DNA of 64,000 bases. It comes from Bacillota bacterium. GTDB lineage: Bacteria > Bacillota_I > Bacilli_A > RF39 > UBA660. Positions 24,275-64,000 of the stretch are shown here, one piece after another. Within the stretch, counting starts at the first letter, position 1. Each line of letters begins with the position of its first letter. The notes below the pieces were generated by a model. The model was not told the DNA's origin. It worked only from the letters and a program-made list of their open reading frames with translations, and did not search any database. Position numbers and translations under genes: made by a program. The DNA is taken from the NCBI GenBank assembly GCA_015059485.1, contig SVAH01000005.1, forward strand, positions 621 to 64,620, written 5' to 3'.

Positions 24275-25531
24275 ATGAATAGGGTATACTTATGTATTGA
24301 TTTAAAAACATTTTATGCATCAGTAGAATGTGTTGAAAGAAATTTAGATCCATTTAAAGTTGATTTGGTAGTTGCTGATAAAGAAAAAGGAAATGGAACT
24401 ATATGTCTTGCTATATCTCCACATATGAAACAAAGAGGAATAAAGAATAGATGTAGGGTATTTGAAATTCCTAAGAATGTTCATCCAATATATGCAAAAC
24501 CTCGTATGAAAAAATATATTGAGTATTCTGCAAGAATATATAAAATTTATTTAAAATATTTGTCTAAAGATGATATTCATGTATATTCAATAGATGAAGC
24601 ATTTTTAGATGTAACATCATATTTAAATTTATATAAAATATCAGAAATAGAAATAGCTAAAATGATAATGAATGATATTTTAAAAACAACTGGTATAACT
24701 GCAACATGTGGTATAGGAACTAATATGTATTTAGCAAAAATAGCACTTGATATAATATCAAAACATGTAAATAATAACATTGGATATTTAAATGAAAAAT
24801 TATTTAAAGATAAACTTTGGTATCATACACCACTTAGTGATTTTTGGGGTATAGGAGTTAAAACTGAAGCTAGACTTAATAAATTACATTTATTAAATAT
24901 GCATGATATTGCATATGCTAATAAACAAAAGTTATATAAAGAGTTTGGAATAGATGCAGAGCTTTTAATAGATCATTCTTTTGGAAAAGAAACTTGTACA
25001 ATTAAGGATATAAAAAATTATAAATCAAAATCTAATTCTATTTCTAATAGTCAAATACTTTTTAAAGATTATAATTATATTCAAGCAAGAATAGTTTTAA
25101 GTGAAATGACTGATTCTTTAATAAATACTTTAGTTGAAAAAAAGTGTTATACAGATTCAGTAGTTTTTTCTATAGGCTATTCGAATTATGTGATTCCTTC
25201 ACTAAAAGCAAGCTGCAAAATTTCACATAAAACAAATAGTTATTCCACAATATTAGATGAAATTTTAAAAGAATATGATTATAGAATTAATAAAAATTAT
25301 ATGATTAGAAGAATATCTGTATATTTTTCCAACATTGATAATAAAAGAATAAAACAATTAGATATTTTTAATACAGTTGAAATTGAAGAAAAAGATGAAA
25401 CTTTAGAAATAGCATTAAAAAATATTAAAAGTAAATATGGAAATAATTCAATACTTAGAGCAATAAGTTATGAAGATGATGCAACCGCTATAATAAGAAA
25501 TAAATTAATTGGAGGTCACAATGCAGAATAA
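24275..25531 (+). CDS. Y-family DNA polymerase (ImpB/MucB/UvrX-like)
   Basis: CIDLKTFYASVEC, YSIDEAFLD and WGIG motifs. Confidence 0.93.
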   Translation: MNRVYLCIDLKTFYASVECVERNLDPFKVDLVVADKEKGNGTICLAISPHMKQRGIKNRCRVFEIPKNVHPIYAKPRMKKYIEYSARIYKIYLKYLSKDDIHVYSIDEAFLDVTSYLNLYKISEIEIAKMIMNDILKTTGITATCGIGTNMYLAKIALDIISKHVNNNIGYLNEKLFKDKLWYHTPLSDFWGIGVKTEARLNKLHLLNMHDIAYANKQKLYKEFGIDAELLIDHSFGKETCTIKDIKNYKSKSNSISNSQILFKDYNYIQARIVLSEMTDSLINTLVEKKCYTDSVVFSIGYSNYVIPSLKASCKISHKTNSYSTILDEILKEYDYRINKNYMIRRISVYFSNIDNKRIKQLDIFNTVEIEEKDETLEIALKNIKSKYGNNSILRAISYEDDATAIIRNKLIGGHNAE

Positions 25532-52573: not shown

Positions 52574-53323
52574 ATGCGTAAAAATGCAAAGTTAATTTTG
52601 GCGGCTTTGTTGTTATTTTGTGTTACTACTAGTGTAAATGCAGAAGAATGTGATTACTCAAAACAAGTAGAGTTGAATACTGAAGCTTCAACTGTAAAAG
52701 CAGTTTATGAGGAAACAGAAATTGATACAGGAATGACAACATATGATGTTGATCCTGAAACTGATGAAGTAGACTATTCAAAAGAAATAAAAGTTGTACA
52801 AAAGGGTTTTAATGTTAAAGTTATGAATATTACTAAAAATTTGTATTTAACGGTTTCTGATGATACAGGGAATGTAAAAAACTATTATCATTACGATGCT
52901 AATGATGGAACAATTATTCTTGGAAATGTTGCAGCAGATGAAATTCATAAATATACTATAGAAGTTGGCGCTTATGATGACGAGTGTTCTGGCAAGACTT
53001 TAAGAACTATTAATTTAATTACACCAATTTATAATGAATATTCTGAATTAGGTGCTTGCAATGATTATCCAGAATTTCAATATTGTCAAAAATATTTTAC
53101 TACAGTGTCTGATTTGGATATAACTAAATTTCAAAGTGAATTAGAAAATTATAAAAAAAAGAACAAACCAAAAACTGAAACAAATGAAAAGAAAGAAAAA
53201 ATTACTGAAAAAGTAACAGATTTTATTAAAAGAAATTTAATAGTGATTGTTATTATTATCGCTATATTGGGGGTTGCTACTTCTGTAATATTAGTAAAAA
53301 GAAAAAGGAGTAGATTGATATGA
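52574..53323 (+). CDS. surface protein with signal peptide and C-terminal TM anchor
   Basis: VNA signal cleavage site, 4 Cys in the mature part, C-terminal TM plus KRKRSR. Confidence 0.85.
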   Translation: MRKNAKLILAALLLFCVTTSVNAEECDYSKQVELNTEASTVKAVYEETEIDTGMTTYDVDPETDEVDYSKEIKVVQKGFNVKVMNITKNLYLTVSDDTGNVKNYYHYDANDGTIILGNVAADEIHKYTIEVGAYDDECSGKTLRTINLITPIYNEYSELGACNDYPEFQYCQKYFTTVSDLDITKFQSELENYKKKNKPKTETNEKKEKITEKVTDFIKRNLIVIVIIIAILGVATSVILVKRKRSRLI

Positions 53324-56037
53324 GAAAAAATAAAATAAATTATATATTATGTTCTTTACTATCTTTTGTTATTTTCTCTTATACTGTAAGAGCAGTTGAT
53401 CTTGGATATACTTATTATCCACAAAGCTATAAAGGACAAACAATGTATTGTGTTGATGGTGGATACCATCCAGTTTCAGAAGCAAATATAAATAACGCTT
53501 GTTCTTTTGGTAAGATAGAGAATGAAGATGTATTAAATGTGGTTTTTAATGAACTTGGATTTAGTGATCATGAGAGACAAGCTGCTTTAAGACAACTTGC
53601 TCATAATAGTGGTTTAACAAAATCACTGAAAGGTGCAGGTCAAACAGCTGTTAATAATAAATATATAAAGGATAAATTAGCATCAAAAGGAATTGCAAAT
53701 TCAACATTAAAAGTTAATAACATTTCAATGTTTGATGTTGTTAGTATAACATCAAGTGGTGGAACATCAGTTGCCACAGTTAGATTAGTAACTTCTGGTC
53801 CTACAGTTGTTACTACAAAAACAGGAACGTTATCTCAAAGTTCATTTGGAGCTGGGACACATACTTTTACGTTAACTGTTCCAAGTCCAACAAATTGTAA
53901 TACTTTAGAGGTTACGCTTACAGCTAAAGTGACATCAAATGGTACTCCTGATGGCTCAGGAACTGGTGGCTATTATTTCATTGATTGTGGTAGTGCTGGA
54001 CAAAATTATATTGTAAAATTAGGATCAGCTCCTGGTAATGGAGATGATGACTCAAAAGGCAAAGCTAGAAATAGCACATTCACAATAACTTTTACAGATT
54101 CAGAATGTGATTGTAGCGGATTTACAACAGGTCTATGTGCTGAATGTAACAAAACAGCAACATCTCAAGATGGAAAACCTGATGCAAGTTTAGTAAAGTG
54201 CGCAGACAACAACGCATTTGTTAATTATTGCGGTACATCAATTAGAAAAACTGAAGATGGATTAGATGGTAGTGAAAGATATTGCAGTGTTTATTGTACT
54301 GAAAAAATAGATTATAACTTACCTGGTGAATTGTATACAAAAGCAGGAAGATATTTTAAACTTAAACAAGACTGGGATATTGATAAAGTAGATAAAAATG
54401 GAAATGATAATAATACTGGGAAGAATATAACTATTAAAGGTACTAGAACTTGTGTAACAAGTACAATTAATAAACAAAGATACATTGAAGATATAATTAA
54501 GGCACAAGATAGAATTTTAACTGAATACAATAAGTATAGACTTGCTAAAGCATCAGAGTATGCATTAAGCCATACAGATACAGAAACTTTAAATGGCCCA
54601 GATTGTGCTAGTCGTGATAATAGTACTAATACTTGTAAAACATATTGTACATATACTCGTGAATATACTAAACAAGAAGACGGTGCTAAATATAAAGAAT
54701 ATGATTTAGGAAACTATGATAGTGAAGGAAAATATAAAGGTGAAAAATATACAGAGCGTTATTATTCTGCTGAATGGATTACAAGCTCAACATGTGCTTC
54801 AATAGCGGTAACACAAAAACCAGAACCTATTCCAGCAGAGGCTGGTGCAATTAAAGCTGCAATTACAAATATGGAACAAAATGTAATAAAAAAATATAAA
54901 AAATGTGCAGATTGGAAAAATAATTACAGTTGTTTTAAACCAGTAATTAAGTTTAAATATGATGAAAAATACACAGGATTTAATGATATTGAATTACCAC
55001 TAGATGGTGAACCTTCAATATCTAATGGTAGATTAGAATATTTTTCATCTTTAAGTGATGAAGTTAAATATACAGGAGAACCTGCATTTCCACATGAAAG
55101 TGTAAACGTTGAATACGTTAATGCAAATGGTACAAGTGTATCTACAAAACAGTATAAAGTTAATACTGATATTAAATATGTTAAAGTGGTATCAACTGGA
55201 GAAGCTAAATTTAAAGAGGGTCCAAAAGAAATTTCTACATATCATCCATATGGTACTATTAAAGAATCAAAAGATTGTACAGATGTTGATTGTAAGAAAA
55301 TTGGATATGCATTACCAGTTGCGTTAGAACATGAAAATACATCTGGCATATATAACTATTATATTGATTTTGAAAATATTGGTATGGGTGGAAATGACGA
55401 CCAATGTAATGTTGGTAGAATAAATGGATGTAAAAATGGTGAATCATTAACTGAATCTGCATCTGAAGGAGCAAATTGTGATACTGATTATTCATGTAGA
55501 TATTTATTGAAGAAATGCCCAGAATGTGAAATTAAATGTGTATGCCCAGATGGAAGTACAAATTGTAGAGTTGAAGATAACGTTTGTATATGGGATGTGC
55601 CAGATAATTGTAAAGAATGTGAAATTGAATGTGTAGGATGTATTTGGGATAATGGAGATACTACAATTTCATATAAATCTATATCATTAGATGATGTTTA
55701 TAAAGATGATAAAGAAATAGGAAGCAATTGGGAAGAACATCCAGAAGTTATTGAAAAAATTGAAAAGCAACAACAAGAAATATATGATAATAAACCAATG
55801 TATTCATTTACTTTAACTCCAGGTATAATGGGAAAAATAAGAGATTATAATAAAAAGTCTATAGAAGGAAAAACAACGAATGAAATACCTGCAGGAGGTT
55901 ATAGTAGTGATACATTAACATGTGCAGAGTATGAATTCTGTGAAAGTTCATTTATTAGAAAGTTCTTACCTAAGAAAACAGATATTACAACTATTGAAAA
56001 GGATGGAAGTGGATATATAGTTCCTAAAAATAAGTAG
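53320..56037 (+). CDS. 905-aa cysteine-rich secreted protein (putative pilus-associated adhesin)
   Basis: signal peptide ending VRA; about 38 Cys by manual count; no TM anchor. Confidence 0.85.
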   Translation: MRKNKINYILCSLLSFVIFSYTVRAVDLGYTYYPQSYKGQTMYCVDGGYHPVSEANINNACSFGKIENEDVLNVVFNELGFSDHERQAALRQLAHNSGLTKSLKGAGQTAVNNKYIKDKLASKGIANSTLKVNNISMFDVVSITSSGGTSVATVRLVTSGPTVVTTKTGTLSQSSFGAGTHTFTLTVPSPTNCNTLEVTLTAKVTSNGTPDGSGTGGYYFIDCGSAGQNYIVKLGSAPGNGDDDSKGKARNSTFTITFTDSECDCSGFTTGLCAECNKTATSQDGKPDASLVKCADNNAFVNYCGTSIRKTEDGLDGSERYCSVYCTEKIDYNLPGELYTKAGRYFKLKQDWDIDKVDKNGNDNNTGKNITIKGTRTCVTSTINKQRYIEDIIKAQDRILTEYNKYRLAKASEYALSHTDTETLNGPDCASRDNSTNTCKTYCTYTREYTKQEDGAKYKEYDLGNYDSEGKYKGEKYTERYYSAEWITSSTCASIAVTQKPEPIPAEAGAIKAAITNMEQNVIKKYKKCADWKNNYSCFKPVIKFKYDEKYTGFNDIELPLDGEPSISNGRLEYFSSLSDEVKYTGEPAFPHESVNVEYVNANGTSVSTKQYKVNTDIKYVKVVSTGEAKFKEGPKEISTYHPYGTIKESKDCTDVDCKKIGYALPVALEHENTSGIYNYYIDFENIGMGGNDDQCNVGRINGCKNGESLTESASEGANCDTDYSCRYLLKKCPECEIKCVCPDGSTNCRVEDNVCIWDVPDNCKECEIECVGCIWDNGDTTISYKSISLDDVYKDDKEIGSNWEEHPEVIEKIEKQQQEIYDNKPMYSFTLTPGIMGKIRDYNKKSIEGKTTNEIPAGGYSSDTLTCAEYEFCESSFIRKFLPKKTDITTIEKDGSGYIVPKNK

Positions 56038-56059
56038 TATTTAGAAAGGATAATGTGTT

Positions 56060-56473
56060 ATGAAGGAAGTTTATTGGGGATATTGGTTAATAGTTCTAGG
56101 AGTATTTATAACAGTTGTTATGATGTTAATTTCTAATGTAACTACTTCTGATACACAGGACTATTATCTAATTAAAGAAGTTACAGAAGCTTCAATGTTT
56201 GATGCTATAGATTTAGCAACATATAGAGAAAGTGGAGAATTGAAAATGAATCAAGAAAAGTTTGTTGAAAGCTTTTTAAGAAGATTTTCAGAAAATGTAA
56301 CTTTAACAAAAACATATACTATTGAATTTTATGATATAATTGAAGTCCCTCCAAAAGTTAGTGTACAAGTGAAAAGTGAGTCAAGTTCATTTGTAATAGC
56401 TGGAGATTCAGAAAGTTTTGATGTTGTTAATAAAGTTGATGCTATATTAGAGCTTCCGAGAAAAAGTAAATAA
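56060..56473 (+). CDS. TadE/pseudopilin-like protein (DUF5411-like)
   Basis: N-terminal hydrophobic helix then EVTEASMFDAID…KFVESFLRRF; position in the Tad locus. Confidence 0.65.
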   Translation: MKEVYWGYWLIVLGVFITVVMMLISNVTTSDTQDYYLIKEVTEASMFDAIDLATYRESGELKMNQEKFVESFLRRFSENVTLTKTYTIEFYDIIEVPPKVSVQVKSESSSFVIAGDSESFDVVNKVDAILELPRKSK

Positions 56474-56496
56474 TAAGAATAATAAGGAGGATACAT

Positions 56497-57306
56497 ATGA
56501 ATAGTTTAGGTGGTACTTTTAAAAAGTTTTTTGGAAATAAGAATACAGTATCCATATTAGGGGTTGTAGCCGGTATATTAGTTTTATATATCGGCTACAA
56601 TTGGCGTATAAAGCAATCAATTAATCCTGTTGTTGTTCCATATGCTAAAGTTGATTTAAGTGAGAAAACTCAAGTGACAGAAAAAGAAATTGGGTATGTT
56701 AAGGTATCTAGTAATGTTATTGAAAGTAGTCCAAATGTTATAGTAGATTCATCTTTAGTTGTAAATAATTATGTTGCTATGGGAACAAGAATTCCTGCAG
56801 GTAGTTTATTTTATAAATCTGCCATTGTAGAAAAAAAGGAGTTACCTGATTCAGCATTTGCAGATATAAAAGATGGATATACAATATATAGTTTAAATGT
56901 TAATATTCAAACAACTTATGGAAATCAAATTTATCCAGGAAATTATATTGATTTATATATGAAAGCTACTGATGATACTGGTAAAATTATTTTTGGAAAA
57001 CTAATTGAAAGTATAAAAGTATTGGCGGTAAAAGATAGTGAAGGTCATCATTTATTTGAGGATACTGTTGAAACACGTACTCCTTCTGAATTACTATTTG
57101 CTGTTCCAGAAGATATGTACTTACTATTAATGAAGGCTGGATATATTGGAAATAAAGATATTGAAATATTACCAGTACCAAGAAATACATCGTATTCTGC
57201 AAAGCCAGGGGAAACATCTGTGGCATCTGATTATATGAAAAATTATATTTTATCAAAAACAGCTATTATTCCAGAAGATACAGTTGTTAGAGAAACTACA
57301 GAATAA
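56497..57306 (+). CDS. CpaB/RcpC-like SAF-domain pilus assembly protein 1
   Basis: TM, then SAF-like VPYAKVDL…IPAGS, then RcpC-like IYPGNYIDLY…IKVLAV. Confidence 0.8.
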   Translation: MNSLGGTFKKFFGNKNTVSILGVVAGILVLYIGYNWRIKQSINPVVVPYAKVDLSEKTQVTEKEIGYVKVSSNVIESSPNVIVDSSLVVNNYVAMGTRIPAGSLFYKSAIVEKKELPDSAFADIKDGYTIYSLNVNIQTTYGNQIYPGNYIDLYMKATDDTGKIIFGKLIESIKVLAVKDSEGHHLFEDTVETRTPSELLFAVPEDMYLLLMKAGYIGNKDIEILPVPRNTSYSAKPGETSVASDYMKNYILSKTAIIPEDTVVRETTE

Positions 57307-57321
57307 AAAGGAGAGGATATT

Positions 57322-58167
57322 ATGCAAGGTGCTTTAGAAAATGTTAAAAGAATTTTATCTAATAAAAATACTTTAACTATTGTTGCAACAATTGCAGGCG
57401 TTTTAGTTTTATATATTGGTTATAATATGCGCGTTAAACAAGCAATTGAACCTGTAACTATTCCATACGCTAGAGAAGAATTATCATCTAGAGAGCAGAT
57501 AAAAGAAGAATTAATCGGGTATATGGAAGTGTCAAGTAGTGTTTTAAAAATATCTAATAAAGGAATAATATCCAATAGTAGTGATGTTATAGATCAATTT
57601 GTATCATATGGTGTTACAATTCCAGAAAATAGTTTTTTCTATTATAGTACTGTAATGTCTAAGAATAGAATGCCAAGTACAACTTTTACTGATGAAGAAG
57701 TAAAAGATGGTTATACAGTTTATAGTTTAAATGTAGATTTACATAAAACTTATGGTAATTCTATTTGTACTGGAAATTATATTGATTTATATTTAAAAGC
57801 AGTGGATGAAACAGGTAAAGTAATTTTTGGAAGATTTATTGAAAGTATAAAAGTATTAGATGTAAGGGATGATCAAGGTAATAGAGTATTTGAATCAACA
57901 GCTGAAACAAGAACACCATCACAATTACTATTTGCAGTCCCTGATGAACTATATTTACTTTTGATGAAATCAGAATATGTTGGTGGAATAGAAGTAATTC
58001 CAGTTCCAAGAAATGCTTCTTATTCTGATAAAAAAGATGATGAATCTACAAAAGTTTCATCACAATACATAAAAGATTATGTCCTTTCAAAAACTGCAAC
58101 TATACCGGATGAAGTTATAAAAGGAAATAAAAGTACAAATGATGTAATAAATAGTAATAATGATTAA
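57322..58167 (+). CDS. CpaB/RcpC-like SAF-domain pilus assembly protein 2
   Basis: co-linear paralog of 56497..57306. Confidence 0.8.
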   Translation: MQGALENVKRILSNKNTLTIVATIAGVLVLYIGYNMRVKQAIEPVTIPYAREELSSREQIKEELIGYMEVSSSVLKISNKGIISNSSDVIDQFVSYGVTIPENSFFYYSTVMSKNRMPSTTFTDEEVKDGYTVYSLNVDLHKTYGNSICTGNYIDLYLKAVDETGKVIFGRFIESIKVLDVRDDQGNRVFESTAETRTPSQLLFAVPDELYLLLMKSEYVGGIEVIPVPRNASYSDKKDDESTKVSSQYIKDYVLSKTATIPDEVIKGNKSTNDVINSNND

Positions 58168-58200
58168 AAAGAATAAAGAATAAAATGGGAGGTGTAAATT

Positions 58201-59604
58201 ATGAATGATGCTATATTTTCACAATTAGATTTTGGACCTATTAATGAATTTCTAATGGATGATAATGTAACAGATATCTCATATAGTAATAATGGTCAAG
58301 TGTATTTAAAAACATTAACTAAAGGTGTATATAGAGTAGATAGACCAGATATTAATAATGCATTAATGGAAAAATTAGCGTTTCAATGTTCAAATGTAAT
58401 GGGAAAAACGTTTAATATGGCTCATCCAATGTTAGATGCTGAGAGTACAGAGTTGCGTCTTAACTTTGTTCATGAATCAATAGCTACAAATGGAATAGCA
58501 GTATTAATTCGTAAAACACCTGCCAAAATTAGATTAAACAAAGAAAAGTTAATAAATGAAGATTATATAACAGAAGATGTATTAGATTTTTTGATAGATT
58601 GTGTACATGCTCGTTGCAATATTATAGTAAGTGGTGAAACTGGTTCAGGAAAAACAGAGCTTGTTAAGTACTTAGCTAGTAACACTAGAGAAGATGAAAA
58701 AATAATATCAATAGAGGATACTTTGGAACTTCATTTAGATAGAATATATCCAAATCGTGATATTGTTGCTATGAAAACAAACAATATTGCATCATATACT
58801 GATGTTTTGGTTACATGTATGAGACAGAATCCAATATGGATATTACTTGCCGAAGTTCGTAGTGCAGAAGCTGTTATGGCTATACGTAACTCAATATCAT
58901 CTGGACACCATATTATGTCAACAATACATGCTGATAAAGCATCAAGTATTCCAATGCGTATGTACTCATTACTAGAATCTAGTCAGGATACAGATCAATT
59001 TTTATCATCAATTCATAGATATGTACAATTAGGTATATATGTTAAAGGCTATATGAGTAAAAAATATAATAGATTTCAACGTGAAATTTTGGAAGTTTGT
59101 GAATTTTATGTTGATGATGATAACAATCCAAAAACAAATATAATTTATAAAAAAAGTTTAGATGGAACCATAACATTTAATAATCCAACACAACATTTAA
59201 GAGATTATTGTAGTATTGGTGGAGTAGAGTTATCTGAAGATCCATTCCATCAAGAAAAGCCAAAAACAGGACCTGTTAGTAAAGTAAATCCTCTTGCTGA
59301 TAATACAAATGTAACACCAATGCAAACTTCTACTCAAAATGTAGGGGTATCTCCTACTCCAGTACAAGCAACATCACAAAGACAAGTATTTAATCCACAG
59401 CAAGCAGTCAATAATCAACAAGTAGTTAGAACAGTTCAAGCAACTCCAACGCAAAACGTATCTCAATTAAACACTAATCCACAAATAAATGTTAGTTCTC
59501 CACAAGTCAGACCTACCGTTCAAGCACAGCCTGTGAATAATCCACAAGTAAGTACTAATAATATAGCAAATATTAATAGTATTCAGATTGATTCGATAGG
59601 ATAA
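58201..59604 (+). CDS. CpaF/TadA-family pilus assembly ATPase with a low-complexity C-terminal tail
   Basis: SGETGSGKT, IEDTLEL, RQNP…AEVRS and STIHA. Confidence 0.93.
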   Translation: MNDAIFSQLDFGPINEFLMDDNVTDISYSNNGQVYLKTLTKGVYRVDRPDINNALMEKLAFQCSNVMGKTFNMAHPMLDAESTELRLNFVHESIATNGIAVLIRKTPAKIRLNKEKLINEDYITEDVLDFLIDCVHARCNIIVSGETGSGKTELVKYLASNTREDEKIISIEDTLELHLDRIYPNRDIVAMKTNNIASYTDVLVTCMRQNPIWILLAEVRSAEAVMAIRNSISSGHHIMSTIHADKASSIPMRMYSLLESSQDTDQFLSSIHRYVQLGIYVKGYMSKKYNRFQREILEVCEFYVDDDNNPKTNIIYKKSLDGTITFNNPTQHLRDYCSIGGVELSEDPFHQEKPKTGPVSKVNPLADNTNVTPMQTSTQNVGVSPTPVQATSQRQVFNPQQAVNNQQVVRTVQATPTQNVSQLNTNPQINVSSPQVRPTVQAQPVNNPQVSTNNIANINSIQIDSIG

Positions 59605-59620
59605 AGAAAAGAGGGATATA

Positions 59621-60514
59621 ATGGAACTTATATTATTATTAATAATAGCAATATATGTTATGTCTTATAGGATGAATAATGGAGAAAACGTTTATAAATT
59701 TTTTGTATCATCTGTTAGTGATGCTTATGATAAATATGCACCATATTCTTTTAGAGAAGTTAGACAGAAAACAAAAGAATTAGGCAGAGAGTATACTGTT
59801 AAACAATATGCTCTTCAGGTATTATTGATAGGCGGATTTGCTGGAATAGTTTCTTATGCTTATTTTTATAGTATTATATGGACAATAGTATATGTAACAG
59901 CTGCAATTGCATTTATTCCATATTTAGCATATTTAAGATGTCAAAAAGTATACAGTGAATATATATTTGAACAAATTCAAATATACACTACAAACGTTAT
60001 AATGGAATTTAATACAACACAAAGTTTTGTAAAGTCACTAGAAGGTGTTAGAGATTCTGGAATACTTCTTGATCCAGTATTATCTGATGTTAGAACAATG
60101 ATAGATATGTCATATCAAAATGGTACAATAGATGAATCTATAGAGTATTTTAATGCTAAATATCCATTTTATATGGTAAAAAACATGAATCAATTATTCT
60201 TACAGATAACAAAAGAAGGTGCAAAAGATTCAGGTGAAGCTTTAGAAAATATGGCAATGGATATAGATGCACTTGTTGAAGGTGTATATAGAGATCAAAT
60301 GGATAGAGTGGAGTTTCATAGAAAATTCTTGATGTTTGGAGGTGTACTATTTTTCTTAGTTGTCGTTATGCAATTTTTACTTGGGAAAGATAGTTATATT
60401 GAATTATTAGATATGTGGTATGTTCAATTTATACTACATGCAATAATAATTATTAATTGCTTTTTCTTAATTAGTGGTGAAAAATTCTATAATGAAGATG
60501 TAGGAGTTGAATAA
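59621..60514 (+). CDS. TadB-like inner-membrane platform protein
   Basis: multi-TM protein directly after the ATPase, with T2SSF-like cytoplasmic region. Confidence 0.75.
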   Translation: MELILLLIIAIYVMSYRMNNGENVYKFFVSSVSDAYDKYAPYSFREVRQKTKELGREYTVKQYALQVLLIGGFAGIVSYAYFYSIIWTIVYVTAAIAFIPYLAYLRCQKVYSEYIFEQIQIYTTNVIMEFNTTQSFVKSLEGVRDSGILLDPVLSDVRTMIDMSYQNGTIDESIEYFNAKYPFYMVKNMNQLFLQITKEGAKDSGEALENMAMDIDALVEGVYRDQMDRVEFHRKFLMFGGVLFFLVVVMQFLLGKDSYIELLDMWYVQFILHAIIIINCFFLISGEKFYNEDVGVE

Positions 60515-60516
60515 TT

Positions 60517-61305
60517 ATGCAAATAGAGATAGTAATAATAGGAGCTATAAGTTTATTTGTTATGAATTATACAGGTAGAATTAATACTAATAAATTTTTA
60601 GCAGATAATTCTGATTATTTTAGAAAATTAAAAGAAGAAGATTGGGATTTCTTGGTAAAAGCAAAATATGGTGAAGGTGTTAACCCTGATATAGTATTTA
60701 CTAAAAGAATAAAAAATGCAGGATTAATATTTATTTTATTATTATTCTTATTTATTTCAAACTTTAATTATGCAACATTTTTAGTATCTGTTGTTGCTGC
60801 ATTTTTTGTATATAAAATGGGATATTTTAGTATTAAAAAATATTATAAACAGCATTTAAATGAAATAGATTCAATGTTACCTCATTATTTAAAAAGTTTA
60901 GAAATATTAATCCAGCATTACACAGTACCAGTTGCAATAGGAAAATCTATTTCTGATGCTCCTCCTATATTTAGAGAAGGACTTCAAGAAATGATTAATG
61001 AAATAAATGCTGGTAATGATAAAATAGAACCATATATGAATTTTGCAAGAGAATATCCGGTTAGAGATTCAATGAGAATGATGAGGCTATTATATCGTTT
61101 AAGTTTAGGAAAACAAGAACATAAACAAGAACAATTACTTGCTTTTTCAAAAACAATCTCTAATTTACAACAGAAGGCTCGTGAAACAAGATATAAAAAT
61201 AGACTTGATAAAATGGAGAGTAAAACAATGCAAATGTTAATTACAACTGGTTTAGGAGTTATGATATTACTTGTATTCTCAGTTGTTAAGATGATGAATT
61301 TATAG
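60517..61305 (+). CDS. TadC-like inner-membrane platform protein
   Basis: EIDSMLPHYLKSLEILI…VPVAI T2SSF-like segment and C-terminal TM. Confidence 0.75.
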   Translation: MQIEIVIIGAISLFVMNYTGRINTNKFLADNSDYFRKLKEEDWDFLVKAKYGEGVNPDIVFTKRIKNAGLIFILLLFLFISNFNYATFLVSVVAAFFVYKMGYFSIKKYYKQHLNEIDSMLPHYLKSLEILIQHYTVPVAIGKSISDAPPIFREGLQEMINEINAGNDKIEPYMNFAREYPVRDSMRMMRLLYRLSLGKQEHKQEQLLAFSKTISNLQQKARETRYKNRLDKMESKTMQMLITTGLGVMILLVFSVVKMMNL

Positions 61306-61374
61306 ACAATTTATATGATTTTTGTTAAAATTTAATCGAGATTATCTCGATTATTTTTATGATAAGGAGTTTTT

Positions 61375-62886
61375 ATGAAAAAAATATTAGAAAAATATAG
61401 GAATTATCATCCCTCAAAATGGGAAGCTTTAAGTTTTTTATTAATACCAATTTTTTTAGGATTACTTACATCAACTGGAACAGATGGAGATATTTGGTTT
61501 TTAATGAATGTTGGAAAATATATTACTAACAATGGCTTCTTTCATATAGATCCATTCACAATTCATAATGGATTATATGTTGTAGTACAGCAATGGTTTA
61601 TTGATGTATTATTTTATAAACTACACAATTTATTTGGAATGATTGGAATATATTTAATAACTAACCTTGTCAATACATATTTTGTATATATTAATTATAA
61701 GTTAAATATGTTAATTTCAAATAATAAAAGAAATTTATCAGTATTAATAACAGTTATAACTACAAGTATAGTTTCTTTAACTTTTGTAATACCAAGACCA
61801 CAAGTATTTTCAATGTCAATATTAGTAACAGAATTATTCTTTTTAGAAAAATATTTTAAAACAAATAATTCAAAGTATTTAATAAGCTTACCAATATTAT
61901 CAATTATAATGATAAATATTCATGCATCAATGTGGTTATTACTTTTATGTTTTTGGTTTCCGTTTTTTCTAAATACATTTAATTACAAATTTGGTAAAAT
62001 TTTTTCAAAAAAAAGAAACAGAAAAGAATTAATTATATATGCTTTTTTAATGTTAATATGTGGAATAATTAATCCATATGGAATAAAAGCAATGTCTTAT
62101 ATACTAACTTCATACACATCTCCATTATTATTTAAAGTAGTATCAGAAATGCAAATACCTGATATACATATTGTATATGGAACTATAATTTTTATAATAG
62201 TTTTTAGTATATATTTAATATATATAATTTTCAACAAAAAGGATATAGAATCAAGGCACTTTTTCTTACTTATTGGTACAACTTACTTGGCAATTTCATC
62301 TAATAGATCAATTTTATTTTTAGTAATATCTTCAATTTATCCATTATCCATGTACTTAAATGATAATTTTTATTATGTTAAAGAAAATAAATATAACAAT
62401 AAGCATTTATTTTTTATAATAATGATATTATTTATAATTATACCAATCATAGTAGTTTTAAAATGTAATCTTATTTGCTATAGACAGCCAATGAAAGAAG
62501 GAATTGATTATATTAATAAAAATAAGGAAAATAGTAATGTTAAAATTTATTGTCCATACGGCGAATGTAGTTATGCTGAATGGGTAGGCTTAAAACCATA
62601 TATTGATTCAAGAGCGGAAGTATTCTTAAAATCAAATAATAAAAAATCAGATATTTTAGAAGAATATTATGATTTATTAAATGGAAAAATTTATTACAAA
62701 GATTTTTTAGATAAATATGATTTTGATTATTTACTTGTTATGGAAAGGGATCCAATGTATCAAAATATATTACATGATAGTGATTATGAAATAGTTTATA
62801 GTGATATTTCATTAACTGAAAATCATAAAAAAGGATTTGGAAAATCTGAAATATATAATTATTATGTTTTTAAGGCAATTAGATAG
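61375..62886 (+). CDS. polytopic membrane protein, GT-C-fold glycosyltransferase-like
   Basis: DGDIWFL…G…DPF acidic first loop, QQW, RPQVFS, NIH, INPYG and IDSRAE; more than 10 TM segments. Confidence 0.6.
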   Translation: MKKILEKYRNYHPSKWEALSFLLIPIFLGLLTSTGTDGDIWFLMNVGKYITNNGFFHIDPFTIHNGLYVVVQQWFIDVLFYKLHNLFGMIGIYLITNLVNTYFVYINYKLNMLISNNKRNLSVLITVITTSIVSLTFVIPRPQVFSMSILVTELFFLEKYFKTNNSKYLISLPILSIIMINIHASMWLLLLCFWFPFFLNTFNYKFGKIFSKKRNRKELIIYAFLMLICGIINPYGIKAMSYILTSYTSPLLFKVVSEMQIPDIHIVYGTIIFIIVFSIYLIYIIFNKKDIESRHFFLLIGTTYLAISSNRSILFLVISSIYPLSMYLNDNFYYVKENKYNNKHLFFIIMILFIIIPIIVVLKCNLICYRQPMKEGIDYINKNKENSNVKIYCPYGECSYAEWVGLKPYIDSRAEVFLKSNNKKSDILEEYYDLLNGKIYYKDFLDKYDFDYLLVMERDPMYQNILHDSDYEIVYSDISLTENHKKGFGKSEIYNYYVFKAIR

Positions 62887-62993
62887 TTAATAAAATGTAA
62901 AAAAAATATATAAATAATTGATATTTATTGAAAAAAAAGTTATAATAATGTATATAAATATAAAAATAATGAGAAGAAAGAAGGAATTATAAT

Positions 62994-63206
62994 ATGAAAG
63001 AAGCAACTGGAGAATTAAATATGACAGTAGTTACTGTAGTAGCAGTAGCAGCAGTAGGTGCATTCTTCTATGCATTTGTTTGGCCAAATATCAAAAATAG
63101 CATAGTAAATAGTGTTGAGAGTAATTCTAATGAATGCATTAAGGAATGTCAGGCAAATGATAGAACAGGAAAAGTAGATTGTACTGCTCAATGCGCTGGA
63201 AAATAG
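62994..63206 (+). CDS. Flp-like pilin 1 (4 Cys)
   Basis: 70 aa; MKEATGELNMT plus hydrophobic helix; located after tadBC. Confidence 0.75.
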   Translation: MKEATGELNMTVVTVVAVAAVGAFFYAFVWPNIKNSIVNSVESNSNECIKECQANDRTGKVDCTAQCAGK

Positions 63207-63239
63207 TAATATTTTAAATTTAGATTAGAGGTAATATTA

Positions 63240-63485
63240 ATGAAAGAGGCGACTGGTGAATTAAATATGACTGTAGTAATCGTAATAGCAGTTGGAGTAC
63301 TAACTGCCTTTTTCTATACCATTTTATGGCCTATGATAAAATCAAATTTTGACCATAATGCTAGTTGTGCAAAAGCAGTATGTAAATGTGATAGTACTTG
63401 TGAAAAAACAGGAATAGCAAAATGTACTTATAAAGATAAAAAAACAGGTAAAAAAACTGAAACTGAATGTCCTTGGAAAGGATAA
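63240..63485 (+). CDS. Flp-like pilin 2 (6 Cys)
   Basis: 81 aa; identical first 13 residues to pilin 1. Confidence 0.75.
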   Translation: MKEATGELNMTVVIVIAVGVLTAFFYTILWPMIKSNFDHNASCAKAVCKCDSTCEKTGIAKCTYKDKKTGKKTETECPWKG

Positions 63486-63500
63486 ATAGAGGTGATTTAG

Positions 63501-64000
63501 ATGCGAGAAGCAATAGGAGGAACATGGTTATTTAATATTGTTATATTCTTTATATTGTTATTTGCAGGTTATATGTGTTTATCTATTAACTATTCTAAAG
63601 CTTTTAATGTTAAAGACAAAATTATCAATGAAATAGAACGTAATGGTGGTGTAAAAAACAAAAATGATGGAACTGATAAGGGAATATCTAAAAAGGATTT
63701 TGCTATTAAAAGTATTTCTGATTATATGAAAGAGGTAGGATATAGGTCTTCTGGACCATGTGACAAAACAATTTATAAAGCTGATGATAAAAAAAGTTTT
63801 GGCTGTGATAGAGATGGTGTATGTTCTGCAGTTAATCCAAATAAAAAATATGCATATTGTTTAAGAGAAGTAACATATGATGAAGCATATAAATATTATG
63901 ATAATGATTTTATATATGCAAGTTATTATCAAGTTGAAGTGTTTTATCAATTAGATTTACCAGTTATTCGTTCATTTTTTGATTTAAACATAAAAGGTGA
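63501..64000 (+). CDS. TadE-like/minor pilin, truncated by the window edge (MREAIGGTWLFNIVIFFILLFAGYMCLSINY…)
   Basis: GAGGTG SD and ATG at 63501; frame open to the end; not in the supplied ORF track. Confidence 0.75.
   Translation, partial: MREAIGGTWLFNIVIFFILLFAGYMCLSINYSKAFNVKDKIINEIERNGGVKNKNDGTDKGISKKDFAIKSISDYMKEVGYRSSGPCDKTIYKADDKKSFGCDRDGVCSAVNPNKKYAYCLREVTYDEAYKYYDNDFIYASYYQVEVFYQLDLPVIRSFFDLNIKG

Follow-up and report, generated by a model that had tools for sequence, protein, structure and literature searches.

The window analysed here, a stretch of 64,000 nucleotides (C22:621-64620, contig SVAH01000005.1) from a metagenome-assembled genome (MAG) of 1.4 Mb, 25% GC and 74% completeness, carries a single block of genes on the + strand that spans positions 52574-64000 and extends past the window end (Table 1). 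Five proteins of this block (two pilins of 70-81 amino acids (aa), two minor pilins of about 170 aa and a DUF5411 protein) are probably, as judged from their sequences and neighbours, the subunits of a Tad-like (type IVc-like) machine of monoderm bacteria that is marked by DUF5411 and very divergent, and in which they would assemble into a filament. The machine is genetically coupled to a giant protein resembling an adhesin and to a type IV secretion system of the Gram-positive type. The system is an undescribed and very widespread variant of Tad-like machines, and the N-terminus of its subunits breaks the class III signal peptide rule. A literature search for DUF5411, DUF4320 or leaderless pilins returned nothing.

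Table 1. Genes and sites of the Tad-like block, in window coordinates
Feature	Position	Strand	Remarks
249-aa secreted protein	52574..53323	+	First gene of the conserved block; Sec-type signal peptide
905-aa Cys-rich secreted giant protein	53320..56037	+	No Pfam family matched
DUF5411 protein, 137 aa	56060..56473	+	Putative pilin-like subunit; head MKEVYWG, then hydrophobic helix
CpaB/RcpC-like protein 1	56497..57306	+	Pfam RcpC, E 2.5e-6; TIGR03177 CpaB, E 3.9e-7
CpaB/RcpC-like protein 2	57322..58167	+	RcpC, E 9.6e-4, and synteny; duplicate, most related loci having one copy
TadA/CpaF/VirB11-type secretion ATPase	58201..59604	+	Pfam T2SSE, E 3.4e-26
Polytopic membrane protein, 297 aa, TadB position (platform candidate)	59621..60514	+	All-helical AlphaFold2 (AF2) model
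Polytopic membrane protein, 262 aa, TadC position	60517..61305	+	Paralogue of the preceding gene by hhalign
503-aa polytopic membrane protein	61375..62886	+	No family; lineage-specific insert, not core
Promoter-like site TTGATA-17-TATAAT	62918..62946	+	Consensus match, 11/12, ahead of the pilin genes
Major-pilin candidate 1, 70 aa	62994..63206	+	Head MKEATGELNMT, hydrophobic helix of about 20 aa, 4-Cys C-terminal head
Major-pilin candidate 2, 81 aa	63240..63485	+	Identical head, 6-Cys C-terminal domain, terminal CPWKG
Putative minor pilin 1, 183 aa	63501..64000 in the window, true end 64052	+	Head MREAIGG
Putative minor pilin 2, 162 aa	Directly after minor pilin 1, past the window		MREVIGGTWITQ; paralogue of the 183-aa protein

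We consider the block Tad-like because it combines a T2SSE ATPase, CpaB-like proteins, DUF5411, two paralogous membrane proteins after the ATPase, a pilin-like model for a minor pilin and a fixed synteny. In layout it resembles a Tad machine, in which the ATPase alone passes a family test and the CpaB-like proteins stand at the margin. Against NCBIfam the ATPase scored with VirB11 (1.2e-32) and with the TadA-family model TIGR03819 (3.2e-29), both below the equivalog cut-offs. The first CpaB-like protein reached 27.8 bits with RcpC, for a cut-off of 28.8, and stayed well under the cut-off of TIGR03177; relatives carry precomputed RcpC matches. The DUF5411 protein matches PF17424 above the gathering score and over almost the whole profile (E 1.8e-57, 193.5 bits, positions 1-132 of 134), and DUF5411 is present in 35 of the 37 genomes sampled from the family of the MAG. 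The two proteins at the platform position are paralogous (hhalign probability 96.8%, E 2.8e-10, 212 columns), and the first of them has an all-helical model with a predicted local distance difference test (pLDDT) of 83. In the AF2 model of minor pilin 1 (pLDDT 88) residues 5-47 form a helix, behind which come a short helix and then an antiparallel sheet; this is the 'lollipop' topology of pilins.

Past the window the block continues with the 162-aa minor pilin, a 337-aa cytoplasmic protein at the TadZ position, a 131-aa membrane protein with weak resemblance to PF18895 (T4SS_pilin) and a thioredoxin. This synteny recurred in 100 of 100 related loci examined, in the order [thioredoxin] - p249 - giant - DUF5411 - CpaB-like (1-2) - ATPase - two membrane proteins - pilins - minor pilins - p337 - T4SS_pilin-like, with usually two pilins, usually two minor pilins and one to six T4SS_pilin-like proteins per locus, and with the thioredoxin gene syntenic in 23 of the 100. 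Relatives of the TadB-position protein number 378 among 1.8 billion representative proteins, and a pattern scan found relatives of this protein in at least 585 species genomes. The carriers are labelled uncultured Bacilli or Tenericutes, Candidatus Coprovivens and Candidatus Ventrenecus, labels which we take to point to the RF39 lineage, and come from the gut of humans, cattle, goats, rabbits, mice and chickens.

The feature that sets this system apart is the N-terminus of its subunits. The initial annotation had described four pilin-like proteins sharing a non-canonical head, and all four are real: MKEATGELNMTVV at 62994 and at 63240, MREAIGGTWLF at 63501 and MKEVYWGYWLI at 56060. Its set was incomplete, since a fifth member (MREVIGGTWITQ) adjoins past the window, and the positions of its motif need one correction, since the DUF5411 protein has its Gly at 7 and Trp at 6. 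The absence of a G↓xxxxE(Y) motif (the arrow marking the cleavage site) was rightly observed: none of the subunits has Glu at +5 after Gly. Position +5 after Gly6 is Thr11 in the major pilins, Glu stands instead at +1, and minor pilins have no Glu there. The head MKEATG contains Lys2 and Glu3, so that its side chains add up to no net positive charge, and neither -2 nor -3 is basic. A hydrophobic stretch of about 20 residues is found in all five proteins. The tiny Cys-rich tips described for the two pilins, with 4 and 6 Cys, also stand, an even count (4, 6 or 8) being found in 96 of 97 homologues of the 81-aa pilin, and 83 of the 97 ending in C-x-[WYFN]-K-G.

Conservation of the head is extreme. 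MKEATGELN(M)T opens all 97 homologues of the 81-aa pilin, single substitutions being rare, whereas identity over the rest of the protein goes down to 38%. For 147 pilins from the 100 related loci, each of the twelve head positions is occupied by one residue in 63-90% of the proteins, figures that represent a floor because a few open reading frames (ORFs) called from an upstream start codon are still counted. The consensus is M-[RK]-[EQD]-[AS]-I-G-[GST]-T-W for 149 minor pilin homologues and M-K-E-S-Y-W-G-Y-W for 92 DUF5411 homologues. At the boundary between the polar and hydrophobic parts, Gly is found in 88% of major pilins, in 83% of minor pilins (Ser in a further 9%) and, as Gly7, in 78% of DUF5411 proteins. 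The initial annotation had proposed an alignment of homologues for Glu3, Gly6 and Glu7; it had overlooked that the Gly itself is kept in all three subunit families. Head residues 2-5 are conserved equally with residues 7-12, and the first 39 nucleotides of the two pilin paralogues of the window differ at 5 positions, all synonymous. Such a shared N-terminal head is far beyond chance.

The start codons of these genes are well defined. The ATG at 62994 is preceded, 8 codons away, by an in-frame TGA, no start codon intervenes, and the sequence GAAGGA stands 8 nucleotides ahead of it. In the related loci, 130 of 137 pilin genes have no possible start ahead of the Met of the motif, a Shine-Dalgarno-like motif precedes 126 of the 137, and the in-frame upstream stop is mostly 1-7 codons away; minor pilin and DUF5411 genes have a similar start-codon context. 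This agrees with the earlier view that the true starts are not upstream. Met10, conserved in only 63%, can be dismissed as an alternative start.

Remote lineages, which we reached through a profile of the TadB-like protein, provide a second view of the head. In a family that we call f5, pilin heads are of the type MKEILQEYGGFIL and MKAFFEEYGLVIV, with E7-Y8-G9. A pilin that starts MKQWMEEGG (head MKQWMEEGGSIV) lies on a contig with SSB and ArdC-like genes, probably a conjugative element. The 47-aa proteins of pLS20-family plasmids start MLDQNADRMYW (head MLDQNADRMYWVIG), with D3, D7 and no Gly. Other remote heads are MDESLKQLVAIV and MELGIKQLITVV. An acidic residue is found at position 7 in 5 of 7 lineages and at position 3 in most, and the register counted from Met1 recurs wherever the Gly sits, and even where no Gly precedes the helix. 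The f5-type E7-Y8-G9-[LG]-[IVF] is the Flp signature E5-Y6-G7-L-I moved two residues away from the start; the resemblance is at the level of the motif only, these proteins getting no score from the Flp_Fap model. If cleavage took place at the Gly of f5-type pilins, the E-Y motif would be discarded. At two f5-type loci (L157:14698-16875 and L158:15433-17589) the Tad-like block and its 855-aa surface protein are followed by a GH9 cellulase with CelD_N (E 4e-87).

A search of the genome for Peptidase_A24, a check that the initial annotation had suggested, was positive: a whole-genome hidden Markov model search gave one A24 peptidase of the PilD type, with A24_N_bact and Peptidase_A24 domains, beside PilC on another contig. 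Comparison of ORFs with the proteins of the window's locus showed no A24 gene in this operon, nor in about 100 loci related to it. The genome also encodes at least 8 canonical pilins, [KN][KHN]G↓FTL[IV]EL, with leaders of 5-9 residues (MNNKG ... MKNINDKNG). Two of them, on the + strand of contig C31 (starting near 24804 and 27336), are giants of 823 and 817 aa with the N-termini MNKKHG↓FTLTELL and MINKKG↓FTLVELL, and at least 6 shorter ones lie on C8, C25, C28, C31 and C32. Beside PilD and PilC (L003:7174-9267, on C4) we found two paralogous secreted proteins of 339 and 345 aa that belong to no family and have an N-terminal hydrophobic anchor with no G↓FxxxE motif.

Taken together, these observations lead us to favour slightly, and with less than even confidence, a reading in which the subunits are leaderless and uncleaved, with Glu7 serving for Glu5. 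The initial annotation had left the choice between leaderless subunits (Glu3 or Glu7 serving as E5) and processing by a different protease; the former gains from the Met1 register of remote relatives, whereas no candidate emerged for the latter. Under the leaderless reading, the head M-[KR]-[ED]-[AS]-x-(G) would replace the class III signal peptide and stay on the protein. Subunits would be inserted N-in/C-out, extracted from the membrane by the TadA-like ATPase together with the two paralogous membrane proteins, for which Lys/Arg2 and Glu3 could be the common handle, and polymerised without cleavage by a prepilin peptidase. Glu7 of the major pilins would take the part of Glu5 and neutralise a positive charge buried in the filament core, be it Lys2 or a neighbour's N-terminal amine, and oxidation of the Cys-rich heads would take place extracellularly, perhaps through the membrane thioredoxin encoded in synteny. 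The gene set with its conservation, the start codons and the register are shown by the sequences, whereas filament formation, the lack of cleavage and the part of Glu7 are inferred.

Several observations speak for a head that stays on the protein. Tad-like heads are constant in length and sequence among paralogues, whereas the canonical leaders of the same genome vary in both; because residues 2-5 are as conserved as 7-12 and the length is constant, the head does not look like a disposable leader. Canonical Tad loci carry their own TadV, unlike this operon, and ComC of B. subtilis is competence-regulated; a mobile plasmid module that lacks a peptidase gene of its own argues for peptidase independence of the wider family. 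Furthermore, one genome of another family (G049, 99% complete) has the full locus, with the pilin head MKEASGELNMT, and gives no A24 match even at E<=1, and neither do two other genomes of that family. The contig that bears the locus in G049 also carries a tRNA synthetase-like gene.

A number of points weigh against this reading. All type IV filament pilins characterised so far undergo cleavage by an A24 peptidase, which constitutes a strong prior, and this genome has PilD. Gly6 (or Ser/Ala) is kept at the boundary, and position -1 tolerates precisely these three residues, G, A and S; in length and form, MKEATG matches a type IVa leader such as MNNKKG↓. If the head were not cut off, Lys2, Glu3 and Glu7 would lie buried within the filament core. 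The contig of G049 could be mis-binned, its GC and tetranucleotide composition being like the rest of that MAG and also like RF39 genomes. Finally, A24 is found in 37 of the 37 genomes sampled from the MAG's own family, and, in f5, in 97 of 121 genomes overall and in 10 of the 10 that are DUF5411-positive. The f5 co-occurrence is suggestive at best (0.8^10 is about 0.1), and co-occurrence within the MAG's family is uninformative because the same genomes have canonical pilins.

These points give substance to a serious rival, which we regard as possible though less probable, in which the head is a short class III signal peptide and the genome's PilD cuts after Gly6 (Gly7 in the DUF5411 protein). 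Mature major pilins would then start at Glu1 (ELNMTVV...) and minor pilins at G, S or T, and Glu at +1 would replace Glu at +5 in neutralising the newly formed amine. The boundary Gly (or Ser/Ala) of all three subunit families fits such a cut, and so do the six residues of the head, as long as canonical leaders of the same genome, the two-domain architecture of PilD and the family-wide presence of A24 reported above; in the PilA mutagenesis of Strom and Lory, A24 peptidases are said to require mainly Gly at -1. On the other hand, no pilin with Glu at +1 is known, and the head is not net basic and has no Lys/Arg at -2/-3, unlike all eight canonical pilins of the genome. Conservation of residues 2-5 at the level of the 'mature' part, at constant length, would be unexpected for a leader that is thrown away. 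pLS20-type and MDESLKQL-type relatives keep the Met1 register with no boundary Gly, and f5-type relatives would lose their Flp-like E-Y upon cleavage. The canonical pilins suffice to explain PilD in the MAG's family, and G049 has the pilins with no A24 match.

Processing by something other than an A24 peptidase is doubtful. It could consist in the removal of Met-Lys, which would place Glu3 at +1 and Glu7 at +5, or in the action of an unrecognised intramembrane protease, possibly a membrane protein of the operon itself. Removal of two residues would yield E-A-T-G-E here and, in relatives, E-I-L-Q-E-Y-G and D-Q-N-A-D, with an acid at +5 in three lineages, and several conserved operon proteins have no assigned function. 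Yet no protease motif or family was found in the conserved operon proteins, the scan for GxGD having matched only the 905-aa secreted protein, and we know of no enzyme that trims two residues from a membrane-anchored N-terminus. The 503-aa protein, the sole extra membrane protein beside the pilins, was considered as a dedicated peptidase and rejected: it is absent from 94 of the 100 related loci and has no GxGD motif. In the six loci that have it, it stands elsewhere in the locus in one.

More improbable still is that the small proteins are not filament subunits at all, and are Sec-inserted anchors or precursors of secreted disulfide-rich peptides, their head being a targeting or topology signal. 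Part of what this explanation has in its favour also weighs against our own. The window pilins gave no match to Flp_Fap (PF04964) at E<=1, and their remote relatives a single weak one (E 0.03) over the helix alone; no pilin matches an Flp, N_methyl or TadE model. Among 58 minor-pilin homologues we found no Pfam family and no match to TadE (PF07811) or DUF4320 at E<=0.05, one remote relative giving a weak DUF4320 match (E 0.0011), and the minor pilin 1 model has no significant PDB fold match. Neither platform-position protein matches Pfam or NCBIfam, the TadB-position protein has no PDB profile match and its model no PDB fold match at E<1 with Foldseek, and T2SSF was detected in none of 10 remote full-length TadB-like homologues tested. 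An identification of the two proteins with PilC/T2SSF was also discarded, hhalign against a PilC/HofC alignment giving only 5.5% and 1.7%. With platform proteins, pilins and minor pilins matching no T2SSF, Flp or TadE model, the filament itself is something that we infer, and the pilin heads are tiny Cys-rich modules. Nonetheless, a hydrophobic segment of about 20 residues behind a net neutral or acidic n-region is untypical of Sec signal peptides, and no Ala-x-Ala-type site follows the helix. The genes always lie directly behind a pilus-type ATPase, CpaB-like proteins and two platform-like proteins; their size, their order (major then minor) and a strong promoter-like site of their own fit pilin genes, and the minor pilin is modelled with a lollipop shape. 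As for an annotation artefact, in which true starts upstream would provide a canonical leader, we found no point in its support, and the close upstream stops, first-start positions and Shine-Dalgarno motifs reported above, together with the TGA at 62994, refute it.

Other genes of the block deserve mention. The 249-aa protein has a C-terminal membrane hairpin that is weakly TrbC/VirB2-like (Pfam TrbC, E 0.03) and a homologue that is syntenic in 74 related loci, while a variable homologue of 700-1200 aa takes the position of the 905-aa protein in 75 loci; in pLS20-family plasmids this slot is occupied by Tie, a thioester adhesin, as judged by position in the annotation of pBatNRS213. The thioredoxin (L002:3083-3511, that is, C22:66703-67131) is membrane-anchored and has a CSHC site (Pfam E 2e-11, TraF-like E 1e-5); it could be the oxidase that acts on the Cys-rich heads of the pilins and on the 905-aa protein. 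The 503-aa protein, encoded between platform genes and pilins in this genus and a few others, ends in a soluble part and might act on the pilins as a GT-C-like glycosyltransferase. The site TTGATA-17-TATAAT was the best promoter-like site of the scanned region by consensus match alone. Two faecal metatranscriptome runs (X12 and X14) yielded one piece of 151 nucleotides each, identical to sequence within 63080-63242; these pieces run from the last part of the first pilin gene into the first part of the second, and are weak evidence for in vivo transcription of the pilin genes.

The block also has a neighbour of relevance. Further along the same contig lies a chromosomal type IV secretion system (T4SS) of the Gram-positive type (C22:71747-87914; L002:8127-19380 and further), with T4SS_pilin-like and TcpE/PrgI-like proteins, a VirB4-like ATPase (TraG P-loop, 1.3e-12) and VirD4 (T4SS-DNA_transf, 1.8e-48), as well as a 728-aa VirB6/TrbL-like protein that matches the TrbL-like protein of G049. 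In G049 and two other genomes (G014 and G011) T4SS genes stand directly behind the Tad-like genes, and the two gene sets may form one apparatus. Searches of plasmids paired the ATPase with the 'VirB11-like' ATPase of pLS20-family Bacillus plasmids, at about 32% identity; they gave no match for DUF5411 and, for the TadB-like protein, only three marginal matches in Bacillus thuringiensis (22.7% identity, E 5e-3). The order of genes in pBatNRS213 is Tie adhesin, a 126-aa N-anchored protein, ATPase, membrane proteins of 267 and 245 aa, DUF4320, two identical 47-aa single-helix proteins, VirD4 and VirB6. The RF39-like operon and the pLS20 module have this gene order in common, with sequence similarity solid for the ATPase alone. 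In the paper describing the pLS20 family, genes 36 and 38-41 are of unknown function and Gram-positive conjugative elements are stated to form no pili (PMC8557374).

The wider meaning depends on which reading holds. We tentatively propose that this is the first branch of type IV filaments with assembly-ready pilins and no prepilin peptidase step, in which a fixed head M-K-E-x-x-x-E counted from Met1 would stand for the leader, and Lys2 or the initiator amine together with Glu7 for F1/E5, and that the machine common to RF39-like chromosomes and pLS20-type plasmids could be the long-missing pilus-like organelle for adhesion or mating of Gram-positive T4SS. Cleavage of a leader by an A24 peptidase is treated as defining for type IV filaments, including pili, type II secretion pseudopili, Com pili and archaella. 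If the step is skipped, or if Glu stands at +1 after an atypical cut, this defining rule would change, as would motif-based pilin finders. In RF39-like gut bacteria the family belongs to the core, being present in at least 585 species. Its relatives stand at the head of conjugation operons in Bacillus plasmids, for which the absence of pili is stated in the literature; pLS20 is therefore a tractable model for whether monoderm conjugation uses a Tad-like filament.

Comparison with known systems situates the operon between several of them. With the Tad/Flp loci of Aggregatibacter (tad), Caulobacter (cpa) and Bifidobacterium breve (tad) it shares a CpaB/RcpC-like protein, a TadA/CpaF-type ATPase with two paralogous polytopic proteins behind it, very small major pilins followed by larger minor pilins and a ParA-sized protein at the TadZ position; the E-Y-G of remote relatives recalls the E5-Y6-G7 of Flp, the window pilins having E7-L8. 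It differs from them in having no TadV/CpaA gene, no long leader and no G↓xxxxEY, in the disulfide heads of its pilins and the lack of any T2SSF, Flp_Fap or TadE score, and in its extras, namely DUF5411, the giant Cys-rich protein, VirB2-like membrane proteins and linkage to a T4SS. With genes 34-41 of pLS20 (Tie, P36, 'VirB11', P38, P39, P40, which is DUF4320, and P41) it has in common the gene order, followed by VirD4/VirB6/VirB4, heads counted from Met1 with acids at 3 and 7, and the lack of a peptidase gene. In contrast, the plasmids have no CpaB-like or TadZ-position gene, their 47-aa proteins lack both a boundary Gly and a Cys head, and similarity outside the ATPase is marginal.

The type IVa/Com pilins of the same genome also have a head of 5-9 residues that ends in Gly and precedes a hydrophobic helix, in a cell with the same A24 peptidase, but they have a basic residue at -2/-3, Glu at +5 and a leader of variable length, whereas MKEATG-ELNMT has Glu right after Gly, Thr at +5 and a head of fixed length. 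Finally, the TANB77 pilus cluster resembles our system in coming from an uncultured gut Firmicute, in being Tad-like by structure alone, and in its unannotated pilin-like proteins, with no peptidase listed (PMC11680825). It differs from it by a fused TadC-TadB of 693 aa, an ATPase of 640 aa, separate TadZ and CpaE proteins, pilin-like proteins of 143-621 aa and its place in a clade of Clostridia (PMC11680825).

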